This document shows, one piece after another, positions 1-21,139 of a stretch of 64,000 nucleotides of DNA (the first letter of the stretch is position 1; each line of letters starts with the position of its first letter). The stretch lies in the IMG/VR virus record IMGVR_UViG_3300017971_000007; one strand, given 5' to 3'. The position numbers and the translations under genes were made by a program. Under the pieces are notes generated by a model. The model was not told the DNA's origin. It saw only the letters and a program-made list of their open reading frames with translations, and did not search any database. This DNA is from a virus.

Positions 1-37
1 ACCACGTCGTTATATAGATTCTCTTGACTTCTGGCAC
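1..37 (-). CDS. 5' end of a gene running off the window edge (MPEVKRIYITTW...)
   Basis: GGAGGAG Shine-Dalgarno followed by GTG at 37; frame open to position 1. Confidence 0.5.
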   Translation of the reverse strand, partial: MPEVKRIYITTW

Positions 38-52
38 TATTCTCCTCCAAAT

Positions 53-80
53 AAAAAACGGTGTCTCCTGGTGACACCGC
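53..80 (-). terminator. intrinsic terminator
   Basis: stem CGGTGTC/GACACCG (59-65/73-79) followed by a T6 tract on the minus strand. Confidence 0.7.
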
Positions 81-175
81 TACCAATCAGATATTTTGTC
101 TAGTACCTTGGACTGCCTCCTTGTTCATCTATTCCTGCCTGCAGCGAGCTCACCAGGATAACTCGCCAATTAACT

Positions 176-397
176 CTATTTTTGTTTCTTAGTTTGAAGT
201 TTTTTTAGTCTTCTTGAAGCATTTGACCTGTTTGCGTAGGTTCTTACTTTGGTGTTGGTGGATAGTTCTTCTATGGTATGCCCGACAGCGAAGCAGTTTC
301 CTATGGGGTCGTCAGCTATCCATTTGTTTAGCTTATTGTCTTTATGGGCTAAAAGAAATCTCCCAGCAAATTTCCCGTTCTCTATTTTCTGGACCAT
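176..397 (-). CDS. hypothetical basic protein, 73 aa
   Basis: AGGAGG SD upstream of the ATG; same strand as neighbours. Confidence 0.7.
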   Translation of the reverse strand: MVQKIENGKFAGRFLLAHKDNKLNKWIADDPIGNCFAVGHTIEELSTNTKVRTYANRSNASRRLKKLQTKKQK

Positions 398-467
398 TCT
401 GTCCTCCTGGTTCGGTCATAGGCAGTATACAGAGAATGGTGGCTCTAGTGACAGATGTTTCTGTATC

Positions 468-516
468 TGGTCGAGTCCTCAGATATTTTCTCACATTAAA
501 TCTGAGGACTCGACCA
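468..516. repeat. perfect 17-bp inverted repeat with 15-nt loop
   Basis: TGGTCGAGTCCTCAGAT (468-484) / ATCTGAGGACTCGACCA (500-516), intergenic. Confidence 0.9.
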
Positions 517-520
517 CGTT

Positions 521-1087
521 CTAAATAGGTGACCTCATCTCCAACTTCCTAGTTCTGTGCCTGTTCATCTTTACAGTATGTATTATCGCTGTCGGATTCT
601 CTTCCTTGTTCTCAAACAAGACCAACGGTCTGTAATTTTTAGTTTTGACCGAGCTGAACACATACGTATCAGTTTCTCCTTCAAATACAGACCTGTATAT
701 CTGAAGGTATTCGCTTTTTACTCCATTTCTTATGTGGGAGTGGCTGGACGAGAAGACTCTCAGGCCGTACTCACTCACGGCCGCATATTCCTCTTTTCTT
801 GGTATCGATTCCCAGGCAAGGTCCATGGTTCCACACCCCAAAAGTATGCCCGTCCATCCTCTTTTATATATGTGCCAGATTATGTCACTGTACGCTCTGG
901 AGTTAGAGGCCATAAAGTCGGCAGCAGCCTCCAATTCATTGAGTTCCGGGCATAGTTGGATGTGTTGCTTCTTAACACAGAACCCAAACACCCAATTGAA
1001 TATAAATAGGCTATCTCCCTGTTCTATTGCGAAGAAAGGGAATTCCGTGAAGCTAAGTAAAGTTTCCATCGTGTCTCTAGTTAGCAT
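521..1087 (-). CDS. hypothetical protein, 188 aa
   Basis: AGGAGG SD; promoter motif at 1113-1143. Confidence 0.8.
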   Translation of the reverse strand: MLTRDTMETLLSFTEFPFFAIEQGDSLFIFNWVFGFCVKKQHIQLCPELNELEAAADFMASNSRAYSDIIWHIYKRGWTGILLGCGTMDLAWESIPRKEEYAAVSEYGLRVFSSSHSHIRNGVKSEYLQIYRSVFEGETDTYVFSSVKTKNYRPLVLFENKEENPTAIIHTVKMNRHRTRKLEMRSPI

Positions 1088-1112
1088 TGCTTCCTCCTAC
1101 TGATTTCTCTAC

Positions 1113-1143
1113 TCTTATACCGACAAAGAATTTGTTATTTTGG
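1113..1143 (-). promoter_or_regulatory. phage promoter motif copy 1
   Basis: ccAAAATAACaaattctttgtcgGTATAAGA upstream of SD+ATG (spacing slightly off consensus). Confidence 0.7.
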
Positions 1144-1150
1144 AGGAACG

Positions 1151-1357
1151 ATGAAGATAGACATAGATTTGGACATCACGGCCGAGGAATTCAAGGAATT
1201 GGCTAAAAAGGATAAGGTAGCGGCTGGAAGGAAATTGAGAAATGAGGTCATGAGATTCAGTGATTATCTGGTCTCAAACGGAGTTTCGCCTCTGGCTGAA
1301 TGGGAAATGGTACTAATCATCGAATTTTTGGGAAAAAAGATAGTCGAGGGATCTTGA
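1151..1357 (+). CDS. hypothetical protein, 68 aa
   Basis: GGAGG SD; protein-like composition. Confidence 0.7.
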   Translation: MKIDIDLDITAEEFKELAKKDKVAAGRKLRNEVMRFSDYLVSNGVSPLAEWEMVLIIEFLGKKIVEGS

Positions 1358-1459
1358 CTTTTGCGATCTTGGCGTCACTATATGGGTGTAATGAAGATTC
1401 TCCTACGTAGATTCCCCGCCTGAAGGATTGGCGGGTCTTCTGTAGGAAGGAGGTTCGCC

Positions 1460-1645
1460 ATGATCAGATGTGAAAAATGTGGTGGTTTTGCGACTCCGGG
1501 ATTGGCAGGCTTGCATGGCAATCCTTTAGTACCTCTGTGTCTACAATGCACGAAAGAGGTGCTAGAAAAAATGGAGAATGCGGAGAAATCCCCCAAACCT
1601 GAAGTAGTCGATGAATGGGCCAGAGTACTGGCTCTTGTTGCATAG
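1460..1645 (+). CDS. small C4 zinc-finger protein (CEKC...CLQC)
   Basis: AAGGAGG SD; two CxxC pairs; possible sigma70 promoter TTGACT-N16-CACTAT at 1354-1381. Confidence 0.7.
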   Translation: MIRCEKCGGFATPGLAGLHGNPLVPLCLQCTKEVLEKMENAEKSPKPEVVDEWARVLALVA

Positions 1646-1764
1646 CTAAAAAATACTCCTGTATTTATCTTAATTACGACTACCAATTAGATAACCAAAA
1701 ACATCCCATACACAAACCACTGTTTCATTATCACAACACTCCTTTTGTGCACTTTCACGGGAAT

Positions 1765-2331
1765 TAAAAACACGCGCATACTCGAAACCAGTATACGAGC
1801 GTTCCGACCCCGGTTTGTCCTCTCACACTGTCATCTTCGCTTCTTAGCACGGACGGACGTGCTTAGTTGCTCAGACGACGGTGCCCGTCGAGAGGAGCGG
1901 GGCCTATAGCCCTCGCATCGGTATCCAGGAACAGAGAGAAAGCCAGAAAGGCTTTCTTGTAGCTTTAAGACACTGCGCATCTGAGCTCGCTACGTACTCG
2001 GATGAGGAGGGACTCTCCCAGAGCGTTCGAGGTTCGTCCTCTTGCTCTCGCGCCGTGCTATCCCCGGAAATACCTCTCGGCATTTCTTGTATAGCTCTAG
2101 CCTCGGCCAGGCTGCTGGATTCCTGTCCAGCTCAGTCCTACCCTGCTTGACGTCACATGTGAAAGCCTTCATGTGACGCGGCGCTTGGACAGCACCCACT
2201 CCGTGACTGCGTAATCTTCACAATTACGCGGCCTCCCGTTTCACGGGGACGGCGGTACTACTGCCTGCTTGATGAGCCCGTTTAGCAGAACGGCGGTGGC
2301 TTAGGGCTCTCCCACAGGGTCCGGCTCCGGA
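1765..2331 (-). ncRNA. candidate large structured ncRNA (~560 nt), family not recognised
   Basis: no credible ORF; more than 10 hairpins including GAAAUGCC-GAGA-GGUAUUUC (2086-2067); 5'/3' ends can pair; ends in a terminator hairpin plus U tract. Confidence 0.6.
1766..1797 (-). terminator. intrinsic terminator closing the 3636->1770 transcript
   Basis: CGUAUACU-ggtttcg-AGUAUGCG followed by cgtgTTTTT. Confidence 0.6.
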
Positions 2332-3180
2332 TTAAACCAGGGCGGCCTTGACCATCTCCAAGGCTTCGCCTGCATCCACGCCCTCGGCCAACTTCGCGAT
2401 GAAGCCGCCTTTGTGGGCGAAGATAACCCGGGAATCGTCACTCAATCGGCTGAAGTCCACCCGTGGGTGGTCATCATACCGATAGAGCGCCCAACTCTCA
2501 CCAGCTCGATCACTTTTGGTAATCGAGAAGGCGACGTCTGGGCATTCTCGGGCGCGGTATTGAGCCATCGCCTTCGAAAGTTCGAAGGTTATAGTCTCTT
2601 CCGCTATGAAGCCCTGAAGGTCGTCAACTTCAACCACCTTGGCCAGCTCCCGGATAGACGAATGCACTTTACTGTAATCGTCTATCCTGGCGAGGAGATC
2701 CATTCCGAAGTCGACTAGGAATTCCGTAACGGAATCCCCCATCTCGTCTCCGAATTCCTCTCGCGCACCGAACCATCCGATTAGGACGGTTTCGATTGGG
2801 GAGAAGATCTCCTCAGGGAGCTTTTCCATCCCCAGAGCCTTGGCCGTTACAAACGGTCCCTTGGAGTCCAAGAGAACGGTTGTTCGGTACCAGCTCTGAA
2901 GCTGGAAATGCTCCTCTAATCCAAGATGCCGAACGAATAGCGACAATGCGCATTCTGGATCGGCATCCCGAGGGAGCTGGTGGTGGTCGAAGTTTAGCCG
3001 CTCCGGTTCATGACGCCCGCCGCAGTCGAGCACAAGGACTTCAGCGTCCTCAAGCTCTTCTTGCGTGGGGTCACGCCGGAAGACCGGCACGCACCCGTAC
3101 AGGGCAAGCGCGATTGCGACGGATAGAAAGTCGTCGCGGTGCGCTGCACCGGGGTGCGTGATGATCTTTTTGATCATCAT
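2332..3180 (-). CDS. MYG1/UPF0160-family DHH phosphoesterase (putative exonuclease)
   Basis: motifs IITHPGAAHRDD, VLDCGGRHEPERLNFDHHQ and C-terminal FAHKGGFIA match the MYG1 family pattern. Confidence 0.8.
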   Translation of the reverse strand: MMIKKIITHPGAAHRDDFLSVAIALALYGCVPVFRRDPTQEELEDAEVLVLDCGGRHEPERLNFDHHQLPRDADPECALSLFVRHLGLEEHFQLQSWYRTTVLLDSKGPFVTAKALGMEKLPEEIFSPIETVLIGWFGAREEFGDEMGDSVTEFLVDFGMDLLARIDDYSKVHSSIRELAKVVEVDDLQGFIAEETITFELSKAMAQYRARECPDVAFSITKSDRAGESWALYRYDDHPRVDFSRLSDDSRVIFAHKGGFIAKLAEGVDAGEALEMVKAALV

Positions 3181-3182
3181 TT

Positions 3183-3444
3183 CGACCTAGCACCGAGACG
3201 TTGGTGCTGCGCTCGTCTATTTACCTCGACGAGTGAGGCAGTCCCAAAACCGGGGGAGAACTCCGGTATACTGAGTTGACCAGACTCAGCAGTTTACACG
3301 CGTTTCATCCCGCTGGTATTGCCAGGAATCCCCGCGATCTCCTCTTTCCCCTTTTTTGCTGCCGGGGGACATCGGCTTCTGTTCCCACGCCCTAGCTCGC
3401 GTCGGGCGCGGCGGGACTGATTACCCGCAGTGCGGCCTCAGAGC
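3183..3444 (-). ncRNA. candidate structured RNA / leader (~260 nt) upstream of the MYG1-like gene
   Basis: about 8 hairpins; long-range pairs 3419-3413 with 3245-3239 and 3440-3435 with 3239-3234; no credible ORF. Confidence 0.5.
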
Positions 3445-3636
3445 CTACTCTTCGCAAGAGCAGCTCTCCCACCGTTCTTTACACGAACGGCAGTAGAGAA
3501 CTGCTTGGAAAGAGTTGACTCCGACTGGCTCGTTCCTGACATAGCAGGTCGAGTTCCAGTCGACCACCCCGATGCCCTCGGGGTGGTTCTCGGCCAAATC
3601 CTCTCTGAATTCAGAGGGGATTTCTTTCTGTTTCAT
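3445..3636 (-). CDS. small Cys-rich hypothetical protein, 63 aa
   Basis: CRSC...CSC; starts 7 nt downstream of promoter motif copy 2. Confidence 0.6.
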   Translation of the reverse strand: MKQKEIPSEFREDLAENHPEGIGVVDWNSTCYVRNEPVGVNSFQAVLYCRSCKERWESCSCEE

Positions 3637-3643
3637 TCATATA

Positions 3644-3673
3644 TCTTATACAGAAAACTGCGTATATTTTTGC
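3644..3673 (-). promoter_or_regulatory. phage promoter motif copy 2
   Basis: gcAAAAATATACgcagttttctGTATAAGA. Confidence 0.75.
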
Positions 3674-3681
3674 GTATAGCT

Positions 3682-3700
3682 AAAAAAGGGGTTTCCCCCT
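3682..3700 (-). terminator. intrinsic terminator
   Basis: AGGGG-GAAA-CCCCT followed by a T tract, right after the stop at 3704. Confidence 0.6.
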
Positions 3701-3703
3701 ATT

Positions 3704-3928
3704 TTATTTATATGGTCCGAGCACGACCGAGTCGTGCTCATATTCCGGAGTTTTGAAACACTCCGGAATAATTCCAGACTGGGTATTTGAAAATACCCAG
3801 TCTGCCTCCTCTGCTAGATATATATAATCTAAGTCAACTAACTCTAAATATACTTCATCATAGTCGGCCAGTCCGACTATGACTTCATCCTCTCCCCCAG
3901 GAGCTGTGATGATGTCATACACCTTCAT
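3704..3928 (-). CDS. acidic hypothetical protein, 74 aa (start revised to 3928, MKVYDII...)
   Basis: GGAGGT SD and promoter motif immediately upstream of ATG 3928. Confidence 0.7.
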   Translation of the reverse strand: MKVYDIITAPGGEDEVIVGLADYDEVYLELVDLDYIYLAEEADWVFSNTQSGIIPECFKTPEYEHDSVVLGPYK

Positions 3929-3943
3929 TTTTACCTCCATAAA

Positions 3944-3973
3944 TCTTATACAGATATTCGCGTATGATTTATA
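3944..3973 (-). promoter_or_regulatory. phage promoter motif copy 3
   Basis: tataAATCATACgcgaatatctGTATAAGA. Confidence 0.6.
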
Positions 3974-3979
3974 GAAGCT

Positions 3980-4019
3980 AAAAATATGGAGGGGGAAGAT
4001 GCCGGAAACCCCCTCCATA
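3980..4019 (-). terminator. intrinsic terminator
   Basis: 11-bp stem TATGGAGGGGG/CCCCCTCCATA followed by TTTT. Confidence 0.7.
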
Positions 4020-4023
4020 AATC

Positions 4024-4563
4024 TTATCCAAATATGTGGTCGACTATCTTTATGGCGAGTATACGCCTAAACTGTCTATCGTCTAACATTTTGTCGATTT
4101 CTCTATGCGTTAGGAGATCTGCTATTGTTATTTCATGGCCTGATATATCATACTCCGCCATAAAACTATCAACCCCGCCTTTACACAATTTTTCAACGGC
4201 CCAATTGTATTCTAGTGTTATATCTTTGTACGTTTCTAATATTTTAGTTAAGTTATCTTTTTTAGTGTATTGAGTAATTAATTTATTTTCGGATTTTTTT
4301 CTCAGCTTTTCAGAGAAGTAATCCGCCCACACTTTCCCATCATCAAACCAGTCTATTATTGAGATTCCTTCCTCGCAATGATACACGAATTCGTTTTCTT
4401 GGGCGCACACGGCGTCTGGTAAGACAGCGTCAATGTACTCCTCGGAAAACGCTTCTACGGTGTTCCCTCTGCGTCTCCAGTATAGATTGCAGTTGGGGTC
4501 TGCGGTCCACCCGTCGACAATTTCTCCCACAGCGTATCTCGGATCCTCATAGTCAGACCACAT
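4024..4563 (-). CDS. hypothetical protein, 179 aa
   Basis: ORF coupled to the upstream gene (1-nt gap) and followed by a terminator. Confidence 0.75.
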   Translation of the reverse strand: MWSDYEDPRYAVGEIVDGWTADPNCNLYWRRRGNTVEAFSEEYIDAVLPDAVCAQENEFVYHCEEGISIIDWFDDGKVWADYFSEKLRKKSENKLITQYTKKDNLTKILETYKDITLEYNWAVEKLCKGGVDSFMAEYDISGHEITIADLLTHREIDKMLDDRQFRRILAIKIVDHIFG

Positions 4564-4564
4564 T

Positions 4565-5227
4565 CTATCTACCCATCCGTATCTGTTGAGGTGGAAATGT
4601 AGGTCCCCTTTTTGATATATTTTTTAGAGCGCTGCAGAAATACGACTCTCTGCAGCGCTCGTCCGCCGTTTCCGTTACAAGCCTCCCGTACCTCTTCTCC
4701 GTTTCCATCAGCAGGAAACGGCGGATATCTACGTGCGCCCACTTGTAATCAGCCATCAGCTTCACTTTTTTAGTGAACTCCTGCCCGTCCGATGAGAACC
4801 AAGACAGTTCCACTGTCTTATTTTTTATAAAATCTTCTCCGTTCAAATTTTCCCAATTTCTGAGATAGTGTATTATGCAGGAAATTGAGTTTGATAGAAT
4901 AACAGTATTGTCGTCTGCGATGACAAACGGACCTTCACTAGGTCCATGAGACTTAATCGGTACGTATATCCTGTATCCGTCTACTCGGATATGACGTTGT
5001 TCTGCGGCATCGGTTCTGTAATAACCCACTTCCAGGAGGTCATTCTCACTAGTGGGCGGGTTCAGGTAACCCGCTCCGCTAAGTCCGGTTATTGATGTAT
5101 AGTACTGCTCTCCTCCATATAGGTTATGCATAACCTCTCGATCATGCTCATAGTGCCATACACGGTTATCTTTGAGAGATACGAAGCAGCTGGATTCTCC
5201 GCCTTTGTAGTTTACATCGATTCTCAT
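4565..5227 (-). CDS. hypothetical protein, 220 aa
   Basis: AAGGAG SD; promoter motif copy 4 upstream. Confidence 0.8.
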   Translation of the reverse strand: MRIDVNYKGGESSCFVSLKDNRVWHYEHDREVMHNLYGGEQYYTSITGLSGAGYLNPPTSENDLLEVGYYRTDAAEQRHIRVDGYRIYVPIKSHGPSEGPFVIADDNTVILSNSISCIIHYLRNWENLNGEDFIKNKTVELSWFSSDGQEFTKKVKLMADYKWAHVDIRRFLLMETEKRYGRLVTETADERCRESYFCSALKNISKRGPTFPPQQIRMGR

Positions 5228-5259
5228 TTTTTCTCCTTGTTGTTTTTTGGTTACATAAT

Positions 5260-5289
5260 TCTTATACCGATAAATCAGTATTTTTTTGG
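5260..5289 (-). promoter_or_regulatory. phage promoter motif copy 4
   Basis: ccAAAAAAATACtgatttatcgGTATAAGA. Confidence 0.75.
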
Positions 5290-5296
5290 ATGAGTT

Positions 5297-5500
5297 AAAA
5301 AATTTCGAGTGCCCTTTTCACGACAACCCTGGATCGGTTTCCCGTCACTGATTGTCAGGCACTCGTGGCTGCCGTCGGCTTGGTGGATGTCCTCCACTCC
5401 TTAGGCCCCCTTCGGGCATCTCTGCCGGGGACGACATCCGTTACCAGATGCGGTCGTCTCCAACAAGCCTGCGCTGTCCACATCCTCAAAGGGAGGACAT
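5297..5500 (-). ncRNA. candidate stand-alone sRNA (~200 nt)
   Basis: own promoter motif (5504-5533), three GNRA-capped hairpins, 8-bp 3' closing stem, then U6; no SD+ORF. Confidence 0.65.
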
Positions 5501-5503
5501 AGG

Positions 5504-5533
5504 TCTTATAACGAAAAAGTCATACTTTTTTCA
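5504..5533 (-). promoter_or_regulatory. phage promoter motif copy 5 (points into a non-coding stretch)
   Basis: tgAAAAAAGTATgactttttcgTTATAAGA. Confidence 0.65.
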
Positions 5534-5684
5534 CCTTCCCCATGATGGGATTTTCTACATACTCGAACCATTCTTTATAATCTTCGAGACATTGCTCATG
5601 AAAAAAACATTTTTTCCCTGTTAAATCCACTCTAATGACTGCATCTTTTCCGACTTCTTTTTTGCACCAATGACATTTATCCAT
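5520..5684 (-). CDS. small zinc-finger protein, 54 aa (start revised to 5684, MDKCHWC...)
   Basis: AAGGAG SD; CxxC...HxxC. Confidence 0.7.
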   Translation of the reverse strand: MDKCHWCKKEVGKDAVIRVDLTGKKCFFHEQCLEDYKEWFEYVENPIMGKVKKV

Positions 5685-5696
5685 CGTCTGCTCCTT

Positions 5697-5865
5697 AGCA
5701 AAAAAGAAGCCGTGCACTTGGGCGTTTTGGATGGCAAGCAATCATCCCTGTGATTGCAGTCTGTGCACGGCTTCTATGCGTTTATCAGCCCTGCTTTCCC
5801 AAGCAGGTAAGTTCACGCGTTCTCGTCAGCCTTTTTTGGGGAGTGCGGCTTACTTCACTCCATCT
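5697..5865 (-). ncRNA. candidate structured RNA / attenuator-like leader (~170 nt)
   Basis: 13-bp perfect stem 5705-5717/5763-5775 enclosing a 7-bp hairpin and followed by U5; CCUGCUU-GGGA-AAGCAGG hairpin at 5807-5790. Confidence 0.5.
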
Positions 5866-5883
5866 ATTTATTTTCTAAAGAAT

Positions 5884-5900
5884 GAGGAGACGGTCTCCTC
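5884..5900. terminator. hairpin, probable terminator after the gene ending at 5916
   Basis: GAGGAGAC-G-GTCTCCTC with AT-rich flanks. Confidence 0.5.
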
Positions 5901-5915
5901 GTTTTATTGCACTTT

Positions 5916-6230
5916 TCAACGAGTGCATCTGCGACTCTCCGTTTTTATAATCTCTTCCAGTCTAAATTTAAACAGTGACGGAGACGTATTCGCCAGCGCG
6001 AACTCCGCCTCCGTCAAGGCGTAGATCTCCCCCCCTTCCGTTTCGAAGAAGAAGGGGTCGGAAATAGGCTGACCAGTGGAATCGAAAAACGACTCCACTG
6101 GGACGTTGAGACCGTCTTCGGTCTCAACGTGAGTTGCGGTCTTCGGTTTAAAGGCCGCTTTCACGGCCCCGTATGATTTCAGATAAGGGGCCGCAATCGC
6201 AGCCCCCAGAATACATAGTTCGATGAGCAT
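5916..6230 (-). CDS. hypothetical protein with hydrophobic N-terminus (start revised to 6230)
   Basis: AAAGGAG SD and promoter motif copy 6 upstream of ATG 6230. Confidence 0.75.
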   Translation of the reverse strand: MLIELCILGAAIAAPYLKSYGAVKAAFKPKTATHVETEDGLNVPVESFFDSTGQPISDPFFFETEGGEIYALTEAEFALANTSPSLFKFRLEEIIKTESRRCTR

Positions 6231-6247
6231 GTTTTCTCCTTTATAGC

Positions 6248-6277
6248 TCTTATACCTACACAAACGTTTATTTTTCG
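6248..6277 (-). promoter_or_regulatory. phage promoter motif copy 6
   Basis: cgAAAAATAAACgtttgtgtagGTATAAGA. Confidence 0.75.
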
Positions 6278-6302
6278 GGCGCTTGTGTGCTAACTTAGAC
6301 GT

Positions 6303-9300
6303 ATGCCTATTTCAAGTACAGAAATTAATAGTTTGATGGCCGGGCAGAACCAGATGTTCGGAACCGCCGTGTCTTCATTCGGTCCGATGGATGCTCCCGG
6401 AGTTAGCGAATACAATACCGGTACCCAGGCCGCTCCATCTATGATAGCTGGAGCAGCTACCTTCGGAGCTCCGATTGCCATGGGAATTGGGGGAATGATG
6501 GGAGGACCTATTGGCGGGATGTTGGACCCAACAACAGGAGCTCTTAGGGGATTTGGTAGGGGAGTTGGATGGAGATCTGGAGCGGGTTTTGGGGCGAATA
6601 TAGGGAATGTGTTTAGAGGAGGGGTAGGAGGAATAGCTAGGGGTGTTGGAATGGGGGCACTAGGATTCCTTCCAGGAGCGGCAATATACGGGGCTGCGAA
6701 CTATGCCGCAGGTCAGATGGTGGAAGGTGCCCAATTCCAAAACCAAATGGGTTCTTTTCTGCAAAGAAACTTCAGATTTACTAACCCAGCCAGCGAAACC
6801 GGATACGGGTTCGGGACCTCTCAGAGACAGCAAATAGGAAGGATGGTTCAGGAGATGGGCATCAAGGACGTGATGTCTACTCCCCAGGAATTGATGAACA
6901 TCATGAAGGGCGGGACCCAAATGGGGTTGTTCCGTGGAATTCAAGATGCCAGACAATTCAAGAACCGATTTAAGGAAGTCAAGGACACTCTCCAAGAGAT
7001 AGCTCAGACATTTAATAGTACATTGTCTGATGCCCTTCCGTTTCTAGGACAAGCCCGCCAAATGGGATTTTGGACTCCACAAGATATTACCAAGCACGCT
7101 GGTCAGGTTAGACAGGTACAATCTGCGACCGGCATGAATGCTCAACAGGTCCAACAAACAATGGCTGTCGGTGCTCAGATGGTTAGGTCAATAGGAGGGA
7201 CCGGTCAGCAGGGTGCACAGATGATGGCCCGGGCGCACATGATGGCGGGCTCGGCCGCATTTGGGAACGTTGTATCTGAGCGAGAACTTGGGGAGGCTGG
7301 ATTTGGGATAGGCGAGCAAGGGACCATGAACTTAGGCAATATGCTTGGTGGTCTAAGCGCAAGATTTGCCAGGGGCAGAACCGGACGATGGGCATTGGCT
7401 GCCATGATGAATAGAGAAGGTACTGGTTTAGACCCTGCTGCCCTAGCCGCATTTACGTCAGGCGGTCTTAGTATCGGAAGAATAGGTTCTCTAGCCAGAA
7501 GAAATGTTGGTGGGGGAAGAGCATACAAATTTGTGCAGAATGAGGAGGAACTCCGCGGACAACTCGCCCAAGCCGGCCCACAAGCTGCTTTGGGAATTGT
7601 ACAGTCTCTAGCCGGTCAAAGACTTTGGGGGGAGGGCGATAGAGACAAGTTGGTCACAAATAGAGTTATTCGGAGATTCTTTGGAGGAACCAAGAGGCAG
7701 GCGGAGATAATCGCCAAAATGGCTAGAGAGATGCCCCGTATTATGGCCATTCAATCTGCCCGTTCAGAATCTTCGTTAGACGCTCAAGAGCGTCAACGAG
7801 AGCAGATGATGAATAACACCTATGAGGGATTTAAAAGGAAGATAGGGCAATGGTGGAGCCAGAATGTAGATGGTCCGCTCCAACAAGCTGGAGCTGAAAT
7901 CAGCAATACTGTCGGCCGGTCCTATCAAAATTTTGTGGATAAGTTGACGGGACAGAGAGGAAGAGGGCTTGGTGTAAGCCCGGCTGCTGTCCGCTCGATG
8001 GTGAGGGCGGCTCAGACTGGAAATCTTGAGTACATCCAGGAGACGATGGCTGGTCCCGGAGCCATGCAGGAATTTCTTGGAGGAGCCGGCGGAGGTGTCG
8101 GGATGGAGGCTGCAGAAAGAATGAGGAACTTAGGGTTTAGCCCGACCCAAACAGAGCAGTTATTCGGGGCCAGGGGCATGGGAATAGCCAACGCCATAGC
8201 TCCTGGAATTGGTGGACTGGCGGTTATGGGAATGAACAAAATCGCTTCTGCCTTTGGATATGGACAGGAATTCGGTGCCGGACAGATAGATGAGATGCGC
8301 GGACTAACCCAGGGCAGTCGTGGAATTGTTGGAGCTGGATCTGCTAAGGCACTAGGATTCGGAACCACTGAGGCCATGACTGAGGCTTTGGGAGGTACTG
8401 GGGCCAGGAACATACAGACGTTTTTAAGAAGCTCAGAAGTCCAGCGCATGCGCATGCGCATGGGAATGGGGACCCTAAGCGAATCAGACAGGATGAAGTA
8501 TGCCCGGGGAGTGCTTCAGAGAGTTCAAGCTGGAGCTGCGGGAGAAGCTGCTCAAAGATTGGTTTCTGGATTAAGTGAGAGACAGGCTTTAGCCAGATTG
8601 ATGGCCGCTCAAGGAAAAGTTGGTGGTGAGTTCACTGCATTAGGTGATATGGGAGCTGGTATCGGAGAAGGAAATATAAGAGAGAGGATAGCGGAAGCAC
8701 AGGAACAGGCTGACCAGGGTCTGGCAGAAGTTCTTGGAGGAGGCTCGGCTATGGGCGGACTACTAGGAAGGGCAGGGGCTGCAATCGCCGGTTTAGCGAC
8801 TGCTCCATTTGGCGGCGCAGGTCTACTAAAAAGAGCGTTTGAAGGTGGCGAGAAACCTACCGAGGCCGGAATAGAGGAACTCAGAAAAGATCCACGCGGG
8901 GCTGAGGCATTCCGCCTTTTTCACAGCGCAGAAGAAGCTGAAAAAGATGGAGACATGGATAAGGCCAGGGCTTTAAGAGAGAAAGCCAGAGGTCGGATGA
9001 GTGAATTGGCCCAGGATACAGAATCTGGGATATCCAAGTCTGCTAGGTCAGCGGCTATTCTCTTAGGAGATGCCTCAGACCCGAGATCTAAGGCAGCTGC
9101 TAAAGCATCTGCTAATATCGGTCTCGGTATAAAAACATCCAACAGTCATATGTTTGCTAAGCAATTAGCTAGAAGGCGTAGGAGGGTAGTTGAGCAATTA
9201 GGCGGGGAGGGAGGACAGGGCAGGTTTAATCTGATGCAATTGGCTGGAAAAGATTCTGAGATTGGTAAGGCTTTGTCTAGTGCTCTGCGAGTGGGGACAG

Positions 9301-9980
9301 AGAAAGACCCTATAACAGCTAAAGAACACGTCACCCAGATGACAAACTTAGCCAGATTAGCCATAGAGGACCCCGACAAGGCTGCCAGGATGGCGGCTCT
9401 TCTACAACAAGAGGGTTTGGCTGGGACTGAATTGGAATACATTCTCTCTGGGGCCGGAAGAGTATCCACTATGGCAGAGTTGGGGATATCAGCAGAGGCC
9501 GAGGAAGGACTCGCCACTGGCGGAAGAAGGGGGTTAGGAAAAGCGCGAAAAGGTCTCAAGGCAATGCTCACTGGAATGGGACTTGGAGGCATAGATCAGA
9601 AGACGATAACAGGCCTCATACGTGGAGATGAGACCGCTAAGGAAACATTCACCGAGATAATGAGGTCTAAGAGATTCGGAGACCCAGATATCAAAAAATT
9701 CATTGAGGAGGCCCGCGGGGGACTGACAGAGGCGGAGATGAGAAGTAGAGGAGCTGGATTGCTTGTTGGTGGGGGAGTAACCACTCACAGTGAGCAAGTT
9801 GCCAAGGAAGCCGGTCTTAAGAAAGGCGAGCTTCATCTAACTGGCAGAGAAGGTTCTTCTAAAGGAATGCATGAGACATTAAAAGTTCACACTGTATATT
9901 TTAGGCAGATGGTAGATGCCCTAGGAAAAATATCCAGAAACGAGAAAATCACAAAGAAGGGTCCGGAAGGAGAAGAATAA
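6303..9980 (+). CDS. probable tail tape measure protein, 1225 aa
   Basis: long Gly/Ala/Met-rich helical protein with hydrophobic Gly-rich segments, directly upstream of baseplate genes. Confidence 0.65.
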   Translation: MPISSTEINSLMAGQNQMFGTAVSSFGPMDAPGVSEYNTGTQAAPSMIAGAATFGAPIAMGIGGMMGGPIGGMLDPTTGALRGFGRGVGWRSGAGFGANIGNVFRGGVGGIARGVGMGALGFLPGAAIYGAANYAAGQMVEGAQFQNQMGSFLQRNFRFTNPASETGYGFGTSQRQQIGRMVQEMGIKDVMSTPQELMNIMKGGTQMGLFRGIQDARQFKNRFKEVKDTLQEIAQTFNSTLSDALPFLGQARQMGFWTPQDITKHAGQVRQVQSATGMNAQQVQQTMAVGAQMVRSIGGTGQQGAQMMARAHMMAGSAAFGNVVSERELGEAGFGIGEQGTMNLGNMLGGLSARFARGRTGRWALAAMMNREGTGLDPAALAAFTSGGLSIGRIGSLARRNVGGGRAYKFVQNEEELRGQLAQAGPQAALGIVQSLAGQRLWGEGDRDKLVTNRVIRRFFGGTKRQAEIIAKMAREMPRIMAIQSARSESSLDAQERQREQMMNNTYEGFKRKIGQWWSQNVDGPLQQAGAEISNTVGRSYQNFVDKLTGQRGRGLGVSPAAVRSMVRAAQTGNLEYIQETMAGPGAMQEFLGGAGGGVGMEAAERMRNLGFSPTQTEQLFGARGMGIANAIAPGIGGLAVMGMNKIASAFGYGQEFGAGQIDEMRGLTQGSRGIVGAGSAKALGFGTTEAMTEALGGTGARNIQTFLRSSEVQRMRMRMGMGTLSESDRMKYARGVLQRVQAGAAGEAAQRLVSGLSERQALARLMAAQGKVGGEFTALGDMGAGIGEGNIRERIAEAQEQADQGLAEVLGGGSAMGGLLGRAGAAIAGLATAPFGGAGLLKRAFEGGEKPTEAGIEELRKDPRGAEAFRLFHSAEEAEKDGDMDKARALREKARGRMSELAQDTESGISKSARSAAILLGDASDPRSKAAAKASANIGLGIKTSNSHMFAKQLARRRRRVVEQLGGEGGQGRFNLMQLAGKDSEIGKALSSALRVGTEKDPITAKEHVTQMTNLARLAIEDPDKAARMAALLQQEGLAGTELEYILSGAGRVSTMAELGISAEAEEGLATGGRRGLGKARKGLKAMLTGMGLGGIDQKTITGLIRGDETAKETFTEIMRSKRFGDPDIKKFIEEARGGLTEAEMRSRGAGLLVGGGVTTHSEQVAKEAGLKKGELHLTGREGSSKGMHETLKVHTVYFRQMVDALGKISRNEKITKKGPEGEE

Positions 9981-18618: not shown

Positions 18619-20802
18619 ATGCCAGTTTATCCAGGACGTATTGACCAACGGTATGACATTAAAGGGTCCTTGAATGTAGACCAAGCCAAGACCCTGTCCG
18701 AAGAGAATGCTAGTACCGGTCCGGAGGTTTCAACTGGGACCGGTGACAGTATTACGATGGATGGCAGCGAAGCCACACTTGTCGATGCCGGGGCCACATT
18801 TACTGATGACATCATCGGTGATTTCATTACCATCGCAGGTGCTACTAACGGCGGTAATAATGGAACATTTATGGTGGAAAGTAGGGTTAGTGGGACTAGT
18901 ATCACATATACCAACGCCTCGGGCGTAACCGAGACGAGTTCTTTCACGTGGACTATCAATCGACCCTACTCTCTTGAAGACGACCTCAATTTTGAGAGAA
19001 CAGACAGAAAATTAATCAAAGGGACGACAAACTACTACGATGACGTTCCCACGTATCAGCGGCCAAGTGCTATCGGGACAGATGTTCCGGCGAATTTGAC
19101 GAATATCGCCGGAAACACTCTCGATGCCAAAACAGAAGTTATTCCAGTCAAGCAGCCTGGAATAAAACTTCGCCCGGATATCACAGACACAGACGGAAAT
19201 GTTCTTGTTTCTGATGAGACTTTTTCTACGACCAACTACCATTTCGTGGCAGACGATCTCGGTTCATTCATCACATTGACCGACGGTACGGCTGTCGGGG
19301 CCACCGGAACCTACAGAATCAAGACCGTGACTGACGGACAGACTGTCGAGCTCGAAGGCCTGGCGGCGACCGGTGCCGGAACAGTCACATGGAAACTTGA
19401 ATCTGATTTGAAAGAGGTACTGTCCAGCAGAAGTTACGCGGATGCGGTGGACCGGAGAGGAGTTCCGATTGCGGATTCCGGAGCATATGACGAAACGAAC
19501 TACGATGCTACGTACGTTGAGATCATAAACGCCAATCCTCTCGGGACTCCTGTAGAGGAAGACGGGGACATTATCTTCGGTCGCAGTTTTGGCGATGAGA
19601 AGGATTCTGGTTCTGGTAATGAAGGAACTAGATTCTTTGTCCAACTTCTGACCGGAGATAATGATGGAACCGCGACTGACAGTAGCCTGGAAGATATCTC
19701 AGGGAAATCGGGGACGGCAGCCAGTGTCACTAACGCTGCCAATACTATCACCGGAGTTGTCGGAGCCCAGCAATCGACAGGTACTGGGGATTCAGTAACG
19801 GCAGCTGATGGAAACAACAAACAGACTCTGGCTGATTCCGGGGCCACGTTCAGTGCCGCCGATATCGGGAGAGTCATTACCATCTCCGGAATGACCAACC
19901 CCAATAACAACGGCGCATTCCTTATCACTGATTATATCGATGCCAACACCATCAAATTTATCAATGCGAGCGGCGGGGCAGAAACTAGTGCCTTTACCTG
20001 GACAATCAATACCAGAGTTGCTACCGAGGCCGATATCGGTAGGTACATTACCGTCTTCGATACCGGAGTTGATGGAAATCAACGACACGCGCTCATTACG
20101 GCCTTTGCCGAAGGTCAGTACACTGTAAGCGGTTCGGCATTTGCTACCGACGCCAATGACGGTTCAATCAAATGGCAGCTTTCTCGTCACCCCGGAACTT
20201 GGGATTTCTACAACGGTGACAGATACCGTAAGGATGAAGTTCCTGAGACTGCTGGCAGAAGAATCCTCATCGGCGGGATTGTCGGTGATGCGGAATTGAC
20301 GGCCGACGTTTCAGAAATCAGGGAATTTCTGGGGGCCGCTGATGGGGATACTGCACCGTCACTGTCCAATACCGGCAACTACTACCCGTTCAGTGATATC
20401 CCCAATCCATCTGATTCTGATGTTGAGGAAGCTCTTAATATCCTGAATAGGGAAATCGGTTCCAGAGATTATAGCGGGACTATATTGACAGATGGACAGT
20501 CTGTCACGGACAGTCTCCAGGCTTTGTCTACTGCTATTGAGAGCGCGAATATGGTGAGGACTATCGAACGCCTGACTTCTGGAATTTCGAAGTACTCCTT
20601 GCATACTCTTCCTGGGAGTATCTCTTATACACTGGACGGGACGAATAATGGGCGGAACATGATCGTGGTTTGGAGAAAACAAATCAGGGTTCCTGGTTCT
20701 GTAGCTAATAACGACGACTATGAAGAATACAGCACAACTCAGATTCGCCCATTTGAAAACATCATCATCGGAGACGCTGTAGAATACTGGATCTATAACT
20801 AA
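18619..20802 (+). CDS. acidic Thr/Gly-rich virion protein with repeated ~78-aa beta modules, 727 aa
   Basis: AAGGAG SD; modules at 18730-18960 and 19774-20010. Confidence 0.8.
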   Translation: MPVYPGRIDQRYDIKGSLNVDQAKTLSEENASTGPEVSTGTGDSITMDGSEATLVDAGATFTDDIIGDFITIAGATNGGNNGTFMVESRVSGTSITYTNASGVTETSSFTWTINRPYSLEDDLNFERTDRKLIKGTTNYYDDVPTYQRPSAIGTDVPANLTNIAGNTLDAKTEVIPVKQPGIKLRPDITDTDGNVLVSDETFSTTNYHFVADDLGSFITLTDGTAVGATGTYRIKTVTDGQTVELEGLAATGAGTVTWKLESDLKEVLSSRSYADAVDRRGVPIADSGAYDETNYDATYVEIINANPLGTPVEEDGDIIFGRSFGDEKDSGSGNEGTRFFVQLLTGDNDGTATDSSLEDISGKSGTAASVTNAANTITGVVGAQQSTGTGDSVTAADGNNKQTLADSGATFSAADIGRVITISGMTNPNNNGAFLITDYIDANTIKFINASGGAETSAFTWTINTRVATEADIGRYITVFDTGVDGNQRHALITAFAEGQYTVSGSAFATDANDGSIKWQLSRHPGTWDFYNGDRYRKDEVPETAGRRILIGGIVGDAELTADVSEIREFLGAADGDTAPSLSNTGNYYPFSDIPNPSDSDVEEALNILNREIGSRDYSGTILTDGQSVTDSLQALSTAIESANMVRTIERLTSGISKYSLHTLPGSISYTLDGTNNGRNMIVVWRKQIRVPGSVANNDDYEEYSTTQIRPFENIIIGDAVEYWIYN

Positions 20803-20854
20803 AAAAAGAAACGGTACGTGAGACGACCTCACCAGCTACCGTGTTTCTTTTTTT
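20801..20854. terminator. bidirectional terminator between convergent genes
   Basis: A7-GAAAC-GGTA...TACC-GT-GTTTC-T7. Confidence 0.7.
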
Positions 20855-20873
20855 GTCAGCCATTAATTCCGCA

Positions 20874-21083
20874 TCAGAGCAGGTGTTTCACCAGCTCTGA
20901 TGTTGTCTGGGGGAGTCCCTCCTCCCGTTCACCTGAGTGAACGGGGTTCGAGATCCCAGTTCCGCGCCATTTAAACCAGACTCCGTGGTTCTCGATGTAC
21001 TCTACATCCCAGATGCTGGTTGGCTTCCAATCCCGACCATTCAAATAATTTACAATTACCAAATTCATCAAAACTTTCTTCAT
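20874..21083 (-). CDS. hypothetical protein, 69 aa (start revised to 21083)
   Basis: AAAGGAG SD and promoter motif copy 7. Confidence 0.7.
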   Translation of the reverse strand: MKKVLMNLVIVNYLNGRDWKPTSIWDVEYIENHGVWFKWRGTGISNPVHSGEREEGLPQTTSELVKHLL

Positions 21084-21109
21084 TATTTTCTCCTTTTCTG
21101 ATTCATTAT

Positions 21110-21139
21110 TCTTATACAGAAAAAGGTGTATATTTTTGC
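21110..21139 (-). promoter_or_regulatory. phage promoter motif copy 7
   Basis: gcAAAAATATACacctttttctGTATAAGA. Confidence 0.75.

Follow-up and report, generated by a model that had tools for sequence, protein, structure and literature searches.

A GC-rich predicted transcription unit of an uncultivated phage combines a MYG1-type nuclease gene with a conserved structured RNA

The MYG1/UPF0160 family (PF03690) includes mouse and human Myg1 and the protein of PDB entry 24ah, and the characterised mammalian Myg1 is a 3'-5' RNA exonuclease (PMC6582341). The phage protein described here has the family's H-x-G-x-x-H-x-D-D, D-x-G, D-H-H-Q and H-x-G-G-F motifs, but it differs in being phage-encoded and shorter (282 aa versus ~320-330), and its alignment to the Pfam and PDB profiles is confined to the ~65 N-terminal residues. 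Its gene is also tied to a structured RNA, a tie undescribed for MYG1; among the papers listed that mention both MYG1 and phages, none describes a phage MYG1 enzyme or a MYG1-associated RNA.

On the RNA side, GOLLD and ROOL are, like the RNA reported here, phage-borne and intricately folded with conserved loops, obscure in function, often located near tRNA-like elements and found by comparative analysis. The new core is much smaller (about 120-160 nt), however, forms the direct 3' trailer of protein genes, co-occurs with a specific nuclease subclade and matches no Rfam model, GOLLD and ROOL being presumably represented among those models. Exonuclease-resistant or 3'-stabilising RNAs (xrRNAs, terminator and REP hairpins) share with it compactness and a position at the 3' end, and probable tertiary contacts and a proposed exonuclease stop, both predicted here for the new RNA, would be further common traits. 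In contrast, xrRNAs block the 5'-3' exonuclease Xrn1, and their sequence and structure are unrelated to those of the new RNA.

The window, that is, the whole stretch of DNA that was analysed, comprises 64,000 nucleotides of a phage (IMG/VR record IMGVR_UViG_3300017971_000007). The features of the locus, in the direction of its transcription, are:

3700-3686: terminator-like hairpin upstream of the promoter-like motif
3643-3665, minus strand: promoter-like motif ATACGC-N6-CTGTATAAGAT, a repeated motif of the window phage, just outside the GC-rich island
3445-3636, minus strand: 63-aa Cys-rich ORF from the ORF list, of uncertain coding status
3234-3444, minus strand: GC-rich non-coding spacer, unique to the window phage
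3181-3233, minus strand: MYG1 leader with hairpin A (3233-3212), hairpin B (3208-3189), a weak SD (AGG) and the ATG
2332-3180, minus strand: MYG1-family DHH phosphoesterase gene, 282 aa (281 aa if translation starts at the second ATG)
2114-2331, minus strand: 5' extension of the 3' RNA, rich in hairpins and peculiar to the window phage (folding z -2.5)
1953-2113, minus strand: RNA core with helices P0, P1/P2, P3, P4 and an enlarged P5
1798-1952, minus strand: 3' extension of the RNA, with stable hairpins but no homology, not alignable to relatives
1765-1797, minus strand: intrinsic-terminator-like hairpin (stem 1797-1775) and U-run (tail CGTGTTTTTA), closing the unit
1151-1357 and 1460-1645, plus strand: ORFs converging on the terminator at 1797-1765

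The unit stands out by composition: the island at about 1790-3640 (minus strand) has 57-60% GC, versus 40-45% around it, and 300-nt windows from about 1800 to 3600 have a GC content of 0.53-0.61, compared with 0.39-0.47 on both sides. The promoter-like motif occurs in exact copies at 3665-3643 and 3965-3943 and in a two-mismatch copy at 21131-21109 (all minus strand); five matches were found versus 0.09 expected, and the stretch 3673-3625 is 84% identical to 21139-21095. This phage promoter motif is absent inside the island, and no separate promoter for the RNA is visible in the window. At the other end, the hairpin at 1797-1765 is the first terminator-like hairpin after the MYG1 gene on that strand. 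A first-pass annotation made from the sequence alone had described a GC-richer unit running from a promoter through a MYG1-like gene and a ~560-nt structured RNA to a terminator, and each of these elements is borne out here, the promoter and the terminator as promoter-like and terminator-like sequences.

The island is a predicted transcription unit of foreign-looking composition, at the conserved heart of which lie the MYG1-type gene and the structured RNA. Contigs of relatives have 56-62% GC along their entire length, which was counted in favour of acquisition of the island. A pre-insertion 'empty site' was sought in relatives of the window phage and not found, and the island has no blastn match in INPHARED phages. 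The six ORFs neighbouring it have no PHROGs match, the 179-aa neighbour and the 1225-aa protein of the window have no relatives in IMG/VR, and a tRNA/tmRNA scan found none.

The MYG1-like gene, at 3180-2332 (minus strand), encodes a protein that matches Pfam PF03690 MYG1_exonuc at 36.4 bits (cut-off 22.1) over residues 5-68 alone, a span of 64 residues, and the same N-terminal region matches the MYG1 exonuclease of PDB 24ah (E 1.6e-4). The DHH-type metal-binding motifs (H..H.DD, D.G, DHH and H.GGF) are conserved, and the residues invariant in 56 homologues (H8, D15, D51, D64, H65, H66, D104, H255 and G258) are all present. A two-lobed DHH/DHHA-like fold is predicted over the full length of the protein, based on a confident AF2 model (pLDDT 96.9, pTM 0.90) and on Foldseek, which returned 49 matches at E<=1e-3; those listed are DHH-family enzymes, with PPX1, PggH, NrnA, RecJ and GdpP among them. 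The TM-scores of these matches are low (0.25-0.33), which we attribute to lobe orientation. The protein has no match in PHROGs, NCBIfam or PADLOC. By analogy with other DHH enzymes, the substrates of the phage protein might be nanoRNA or cyclic nucleotides instead of long RNA.

Behind the gene, the 567-nt ORF-free 3' flank folds with a z of -5.8, which none of 100 shuffles reached. Within its core, P1/P2 contains an invariant ACA/GGGG internal loop and a GNRA loop, and P4 carries the invariant loop AGUCC with a G-C closing pair. In the window copy P5 is replaced by a longer hairpin; P0 was read by eye. The core (2113-1953) scores 71.7 bits (E about 1e-20) with R1, a covariance model from six relatives built without the window copy, and 83.5 bits with R2, a model from 11 sequences whose training alignment (A11) includes that copy. 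At the place of the 5' extension the relatives hold a different ~85-nt domain with no similarity to it, and on the 3' side the stretch 1952-1765 folds with a z of -3.7. The rest of the 3' flank has no model match, and with filters off there is no second core copy in positions 1-8000 of the window. An echo of helix P4 at 20906-20924, seen by blastn, gave a weak 9.9-bit model match and was not counted as a member.

Two alignments bear on the fold. In a MAFFT alignment of the six relatives, RNAalifold predicts 62 pairs, 29 of them with compensatory changes. In a model-based alignment of 12 distinct copies, 98.2% of cells are paired (0 of 500 shuffles as high; slid controls 37-52%), and 22 of the 33 pairs have changed on both sides. 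G-U pairs account for 31 of 381 cells, and since these would be A-C mismatches on the opposite strand, the fold is on the sense strand. The unpaired AG, ACA, GAG, GGGG and GAGUCCC are invariant in 12/12 copies, including that of the window. At the gathering threshold, neither the window nor eight related loci have an Rfam 15 match, and permissive searches gave none overlapping the core (E up to 10 for window positions 1400-4100; up to 5 for L033 and L030, two of the related loci). The RNA belongs to an uncatalogued structured-RNA family with six predicted helices, and this new class of complex folded RNA, which comes from large uncultivated phages, is well supported. When 185,579 species genomes were scanned with a pattern, 64 matches resulted, but the covariance model upheld none of them at E<=1; it gave just two short partial matches of ~10 bits, and all 64 were treated as chance.

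The highly conserved unpaired nucleotides in a multi-helix junction would also suit a catalytic RNA, self-cleaving or of another kind, with a role in processing polycistronic early transcripts where genes end. Small ribozymes are known to cluster, and a similar arrangement is seen in two phages (G001 and L001), where repeated copies sit at gene boundaries amid other repeated RNA modules and tRNA-like minihelices. Yet the Rfam ribozyme models have no match, the core is larger than typical self-cleavers and no candidate cleavage site was identified, and we regard a catalytic core as improbable.

The RNA lies directly after the MYG1 stop in 8/8 distinct orthologue loci at >=60% identity (L001, L003, L004, L006, L007, L008, L033 and the window; a ninth, P0007, was left out), and in the seven relatives the fold begins right at the stop codon. 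The 3 kb on either side have almost no similarity between loci, and the gene and its RNA form a conserved unit in otherwise non-syntenic flanks, which supports this part of the first-pass reading. The check suggested with that reading, whether phage MYG1 homologues co-occur with similar flanking RNAs, is positive for the 3' RNA in these eight close loci, but not outside the subclade, where the RNA is absent from the sequence read, nor for a 5' RNA.

More distant phages, G001 and L100, carry the RNA 3-7 kb from MYG1 and behind other small genes. G001, found by an RNA-only pattern, has three RNA copies; its MYG1, of 43% identity, is located downstream at a distance of 4.4 kb from the closest copy. 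Two of the three units begin 7-9 nt beyond the stop of an ORF, and 97 nt separate the third core from such a stop. L100 was picked from the MYG1 tree alone and contains the RNA (98.7 bits) 3 kb upstream of MYG1, its core 104 nt after a 65-aa gene. Across the related phages, the RNA starts at, or about 100 nt past, the stop of MYG1 or of other small genes, always in the orientation of the upstream gene and in 1-3 copies per phage; a terminator follows it in the three G001 copies, in L033 and in the window. The RNA family is autonomous and modular, a portable 3' module that serves other genes too.

On all 10 phage contigs found with the RNA, a MYG1 gene from one and the same subclade lies 0-7 kb away. 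More distant MYG1 homologues have no RNA nearby (L005, L011-L017, L024, L026/L027); for L024 and L026/L027, whose MYG1 is at 55% identity, this holds within the 3-5 kb read. The RNA is likewise absent from the whole records of G002-G005, which have MYG1 and of which G004 and G005 are complete phage genomes. Metagenome and IMG/VR protein scans added few further loci. Part of the co-occurrence may stem from common ancestry within a single phage lineage and not from function.

Such a distribution can be read as that of a dedicated RNA-protein machine, along the lines of the first-pass suggestion of a module in which the nuclease would mature or bind the RNA, possibly for anti-defence. MYG1 and the RNA would then form a stable complex and work as a single system, the RNA being cofactor, guide, inhibitor or specific substrate. 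The genome-level co-occurrence, the successful prediction for L100 and the start of the fold at the MYG1 stop codon in seven relatives speak for this reading. It is nonetheless distinctly unlikely, because the RNA trails unrelated small genes 3-7 kb from MYG1 in G001 and L100, its copy number varies from 1 to 3, and both complete genomes (G004, G005) and contigs (G002, G003) have MYG1 without RNA. Moreover, the window protein is acidic (pI ~5), like the homologues without RNA, and has no extra domain compared with them.

In G001 the RNA units stand alone, occur in several copies and have terminators of their own, which speaks for a trans-acting ncRNA (such as a decoy, a sponge or a regulator, perhaps in counter-defence) with a job unrelated to MYG1 catalysis, the neighbours being co-inherited or co-moved early accessory functions. 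RNAs that bind proteins or ligands typically have complex invariant loops of this sort, and MYG1 neighbourhoods include accessory or counter-defence genes, such as Acb5 and ThyX in L003. However, adjacency to MYG1 is kept in eight loci whose flanks are otherwise unrelated, the same MYG1 subclade is found on 10/10 RNA-bearing phage contigs, and the RNA has no visible promoter of its own in the window; we regard a trans-acting role as rather unlikely.

The position of the RNA also bears on whether the core could be a riboswitch-like aptamer that controls a downstream gene via the following terminator. A ~620-aa gene does lie 260-450 nt beyond the RNA in L100 and in copy 3 of G001, in the latter case with a terminator between. 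All 12 copies, however, lie behind a stop codon and not in a 5' leader, and the window, L003/L004 and L006 offer no downstream target for control, the next gene there being convergent. We consider an aptamer of this kind very improbable.

A type III toxin-antitoxin system was considered and rejected. Such systems have tandem short RNA repeats upstream, with a terminator between the repeats and the endoribonuclease toxin gene. Here, by contrast, one complex fold lies behind the gene, and the nuclease is of the DHH exo-type rather than ToxN/AbiE-like and has no PADLOC match.

The reading we tentatively favour, at a little short of even confidence, is that the RNA is a 3'-end domain of early transcripts, with MYG1 as a 3'-5' exonuclease that either trims the trailer or is the enzyme shielded against. 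Its compact tertiary fold would define or protect the transcript 3' end, or be released as a stable RNA. The phage MYG1, as a putative 3'-5' exoribonuclease, would be the best candidate for trimming the trailer down to the core; alternatively, it may be the nuclease from which the core fold shields phage transcripts. Co-transcription, processing of the RNA and any contact between it and MYG1 are what we infer here.

One argument against this reading is that bacteria need no more than a simple hairpin to hold off 3'-5' exonucleases; the elaborate make-up of the ~140-nt fold and its invariant loops thus hint at a more specialised task for the RNA, for example ligand or protein binding or catalysis. 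A bolder and rather unlikely extension of the 3'-end reading is that RNA and MYG1 are a pair that sorts transcripts, in which carriers of the fold are spared or matured, or that the RNA is a regulator or inhibitor of the DHH nuclease. In the first case, the nuclease would degrade RNAs from the 3' end while fold-bearing phage RNAs survive, amounting to a virus-encoded 'protected 3' end' system. To our knowledge, neither such a system nor an RNA that specifically regulates or inhibits a DHH nuclease has been described. The RNA class comes with a concrete candidate protein partner, which most orphan RNA motifs do not have, and its co-inheritance with one MYG1 subclade, keeping its place amid changing surroundings, offers a route to the role of the nuclease in infection.

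The 5' side of the gene is different. The first-pass annotation had placed MYG1 between two structured RNAs, with a ~260-nt RNA upstream, but the 264-nt 5' flank (3444-3181) has an MFE z of only -0.52, 56 of 200 shuffles fold equally well, and blastn and tblastx find no similarity to relatives except in the stretch right before the ATG. The 5' block is thus neither unusually stable nor kept in relatives, and the first reading is corrected to one conserved RNA, not two. The annotation's alternative was a single large RNA with the ORF in a loop, which would amount to an intron-like RNA formed by pairing between its 5' and 3' halves. In its favour, both flanks are GC-rich and ORF-free. It is almost certainly wrong: the co-folding gain of -9.5 kcal/mol equals that of shuffled 5' flanks (-9.3 +/- 4.0), the 5' flank is unconserved and not unusually stable, no group I or group II intron match was found, and the core lacks an ORF insertion in G001 and L100.

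Further upstream, the reading frame of the 63-aa Cys-rich ORF is present, and its codon-position GC (0.50/0.41/0.67) is mildly coding-like, but it could not be confirmed as a gene: no SD precedes it and a perfect 12-bp hairpin (3623-3596) sits in its first codons. No homologue was found, including by tblastn of related loci, and PHROGs, NCBIfam and PADLOC gave no match. Alternatively, the stretch may belong to a leader of ~456 nt. The adjoining spacer (3234-3444) has flat GC across codon positions and stops in every frame; it has no blastn or tblastx similarity to relatives and no match to model R1, and may be leftover donor sequence.

Of the 5' flank, the conserved unit includes only the last ~45 nt, with the two leader hairpins. 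Relatives share a conserved stretch of about 30-47 nt ahead of the ATG, of which ~27 nt in the window are common to L001/L002 only. RNAalifold on the leader alignment recovers hairpin B only, hairpin A having been read by eye. Hairpin B, at 3208-3189 and adjoining the weak SD as first described, is found in 8/8 orthologue loci, with compensatory changes in two of its seven pairs.

The 567-nt 3′ flank of the MYG1-like gene contains no ORF of note and folds far better than its shuffles (z -5.8). The non-coding stretch from the MYG1 stop codon onward is conserved in six relative loci at 65-77% identity, and RNAalifold on a plain MAFFT alignment predicts 62 pairs, 29 with compensatory changes. Modeling the ~140-nt core by covariance without the window copy (model R1) recovers that copy at 2113-1953 (71.7 bits, E about 1e-20) and gives no second match in window positions 1-8000, even with filters off. 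Across the 12 distinct copies of the final alignment, 98.2% of cells are paired and both sides change in 22 of 33 pairs; none of 500 shuffles scored as high, and slid controls reached 37-52% pairing. A tally of pair types in this alignment gives ~8% of cells as G-U, which assigns the fold to the sense strand. The structural evidence for the family is strong, and the structured RNA that the first-pass annotation had placed in this ~560-nt flank is borne out by fold, model match and covariation. The core consists of these elements:

P0: 5′ hairpin, covariation read by eye
P1/P2: long helix with an invariant ACA/GGGG internal loop, capped by a GNRA loop
P3: variable helix
P4: hairpin with unvarying AGUCC loop and closing G-C pair
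P5: hairpin, enlarged in the window
A-rich tail: after P5

The window trailer also has a hairpin-rich 5′ extension of 218 nt, in place of which relatives carry a different ~85-nt domain, and a 155-nt 3′ extension reaching the terminator. No Rfam 15 model matches the core region in the window or relatives, permissive thresholds included; the family is new and uncatalogued. It is also rare (12 distinct copies on 10 distinct phage contigs), and when 185,579 prokaryote species genomes were scanned with an RNA pattern, the only matches were ones attributed to chance.

Elsewhere in the window, a 617-nt intergenic region has, at 20802-20970 (plus strand), a long hairpin with a U-run and then more hairpins. 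One of these (20906-20924) is identical to P4 at 18 of 19 positions, AGUCC loop included; a T-loop-like GGGGTTCGAGATCCC and a ...GCGCCA end come after it. The element scores only 9.9 bits with an 11-sequence model that includes the window copy (R2) and was not counted as a member.

The RNA lies directly 3′ of MYG1 in all eight readable distinct orthologue loci at at least 60% identity (L001, L003, L004, L006, L007, L008, L033 and the window); a ninth orthologue, protein P0007, yielded no DNA and stands outside the count. Within 3 kb on each side the eight loci share no translated similarity, one rearranged match excepted, so the gene and its RNA have stayed together while their surroundings changed. 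Near MYG1, L003 (5673-7164) encodes ThyX, a member of the Acb5 family (anti-CBASS) and a receiver-domain protein, and the phage contig L026 (2885-3337) has a gene resembling that of ribosomal protein L7/L12.

The MYG1-like ORF (3180-2332, minus strand; 282 aa) exceeds the cut-off for Pfam MYG1_exonuc, with the match confined to the first 64 residues, and a profile built from 13 close homologues hits the PDB MYG1 exonuclease over the same N-terminal region. The DHH-type metal ligands (H8, D15, D51, D64-H65-H66, D104, H255 and G258) are invariant across 56 aligned homologues, the AlphaFold model has a pLDDT of 96.9, and its Foldseek neighbors among the matches listed are all DHH enzymes (PPX1, PggH, NrnA, RecJ, GdpP). 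Sequence and model together point to a divergent yet catalytically intact MYG1/DHH phosphoesterase, in keeping with the initial family assignment.

An RNA-only pattern search of IMG/VR found one phage contig, G001 (also L032), in which a whole-record search located these copies:

822-941: RNA copy
2194-2313: RNA copy
3092-3230: RNA copy

Two of the units begin 7-9 nt past a small-ORF stop, the third core lies 97 nt past one, and all three copies end in a terminator. The MYG1 of G001 is 43% identical, with 4.4 kb separating its gene from the nearest RNA copy upstream. A quick maximum-likelihood tree groups all RNA-linked MYG1 proteins with that of G001 and a few more in a single clade (19 rows, SH-aLRT 85) nested in a 23-row clade (SH-aLRT 97). 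MYG1 of the RNA-less phages G002-G005, of which G004 and G005 are complete genomes, falls outside; the co-occurrence with a flanking RNA, complete at the eight orthologue loci, does not extend beyond the subclade. On the contig of P0016, a homologue in G001's subclade, the RNA was predicted from the tree and then found (98.7 bits). It lies 104 nt past a 65-aa gene, with a 619-aa gene after it and MYG1 3 kb downstream, in the same gene order as in G001. The 55%-identity homologues L024 and L026/27 have no RNA within the 3-5 kb of available DNA. In every copy the module sits at a gene 3′ end.

Positions 1-3600 of G001 are a mosaic of repeated non-coding modules, with a perfect 105-nt tandem duplication (209-418), a 40-nt tandem (3430-3509) and 94% identical leaders before small genes (1714-1790 and 2453-2529). 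On the same strand as RNA copies, and 70-250 nt downstream of them, are tRNA-like minihelices that carry a perfect T-loop motif (GGTTCGAnTCC):

G001 1021-1066 and 2374-2419: tRNA-like minihelices
L001 5148-5158 and 5311-5321: tRNA-like minihelices
L003 5301-5311: tRNA-like minihelix

They combine an acceptor-like stem with a T-arm, one in L001 having a 7-bp acceptor stem and a CCA end. ARAGORN calls no tRNA at these sites, which may be processing signals.

In the window, MYG1 and the RNA are co-oriented; the first terminator-like hairpin after the MYG1 stop is the one at 1797-1765, and the island lacks the phage promoter motif. The fold would be a 3′-end domain of early transcripts that defines or protects the transcript end, or persists as a stable RNA. 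The Myg1 that has been characterised acts as a 3′-5′ RNA exonuclease (PMC6582341); by analogy, the co-inherited phage MYG1 is the natural candidate for trimming the trailer back to its core, or for being blocked there, a reading we hold tentatively. A trans-acting RNA with a job unrelated to MYG1 is somewhat doubtful. A stable RNP of the two is unlikely: copies also stand behind other genes, their number varies, MYG1 phages without the RNA exist, and the window protein is acidic, without an extra domain. That the RNA is a ribozyme is very improbable; a riboswitch, contradicted by the convergent downstream genes, is even more so, and an intron-like RNA is scarcely credible. Among the papers listed for MYG1 and phage, none deals with a phage MYG1 or a MYG1-linked RNA; in MYG1 the new family has a concrete, testable partner.

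The first-pass annotation had sandwiched MYG1 between two RNAs. The 3′ RNA is real, but the 264-nt 5′ flank folds no better than shuffles (z -0.52) and is mostly without homologue, its conserved part being a short leader before the ATG. The hairpin noted there at 3189-3208 does recur in 8/8 loci. The 5′ features are:

3596-3623: perfect 12-bp hairpin, 14 nt past the likely transcription start, in the first codons of the candidate 63-aa ORF
3233-3212, minus strand: hairpin A, seen by eye in the alignment; RNAalifold did not predict it
3208-3189, minus strand: hairpin B, shared by all eight loci, where it shows some covariation; the SD comes next

Read on the plus strand, hairpin 3596-3623 is a terminator-like site. 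The other ~210 nt of the flank have flat codon-position GC, contain stops in every frame and lack homologues; we take them for spacer, perhaps a decayed remnant of the donor. Codon-position GC of the 63-aa ORF is mildly coding-like; the ORF has neither an SD nor a homologue. Ordinary genes lie upstream of MYG1 in relatives, with nothing similar to the window's 63-aa ORF and spacer. Co-folding both flanks gains no more energy than in shuffled controls, so the alternative of a single large RNA with the ORF in a loop fails.

The window appears to belong to a large phage, with ~45% GC, long same-strand ORF rows (a 1225-aa protein at 6303-9980 among them) and no tRNA genes in a tRNA scan. GC is 0.53-0.61 at ~1800-3600 versus 0.39-0.47 on either side, in line with the GC-richer unit first noted. 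Metagenomic contigs of homologues (55-66% protein identity) have 56-62% GC along their whole length, and the island therefore looks like DNA taken up from such phage. The minus strand carries all features of the MYG1-RNA unit, and the promoter and terminator originally proposed for it both have counterparts; the promoter-like motif has five matches versus 0.09 expected:

3665-3643 and 3965-3943, minus strand: exact copies of ATACGC-N6-CTGTATAAGAT
21131-21109, minus strand: third copy, two mismatches
1797-1765, minus strand: terminator-like hairpin with U-run closing the unit

A convergent 61-aa ORF (1460-1645, plus strand) with zinc-ribbon-like CxxC ... CxxC spacing and no family match in PHROGs ends near this terminator. 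At 21095-21139 (minus strand), 49 nt around the third motif copy match 3625-3673 at 84% identity, suggestive of a further leftward early-type transcription start amid a rightward gene block.
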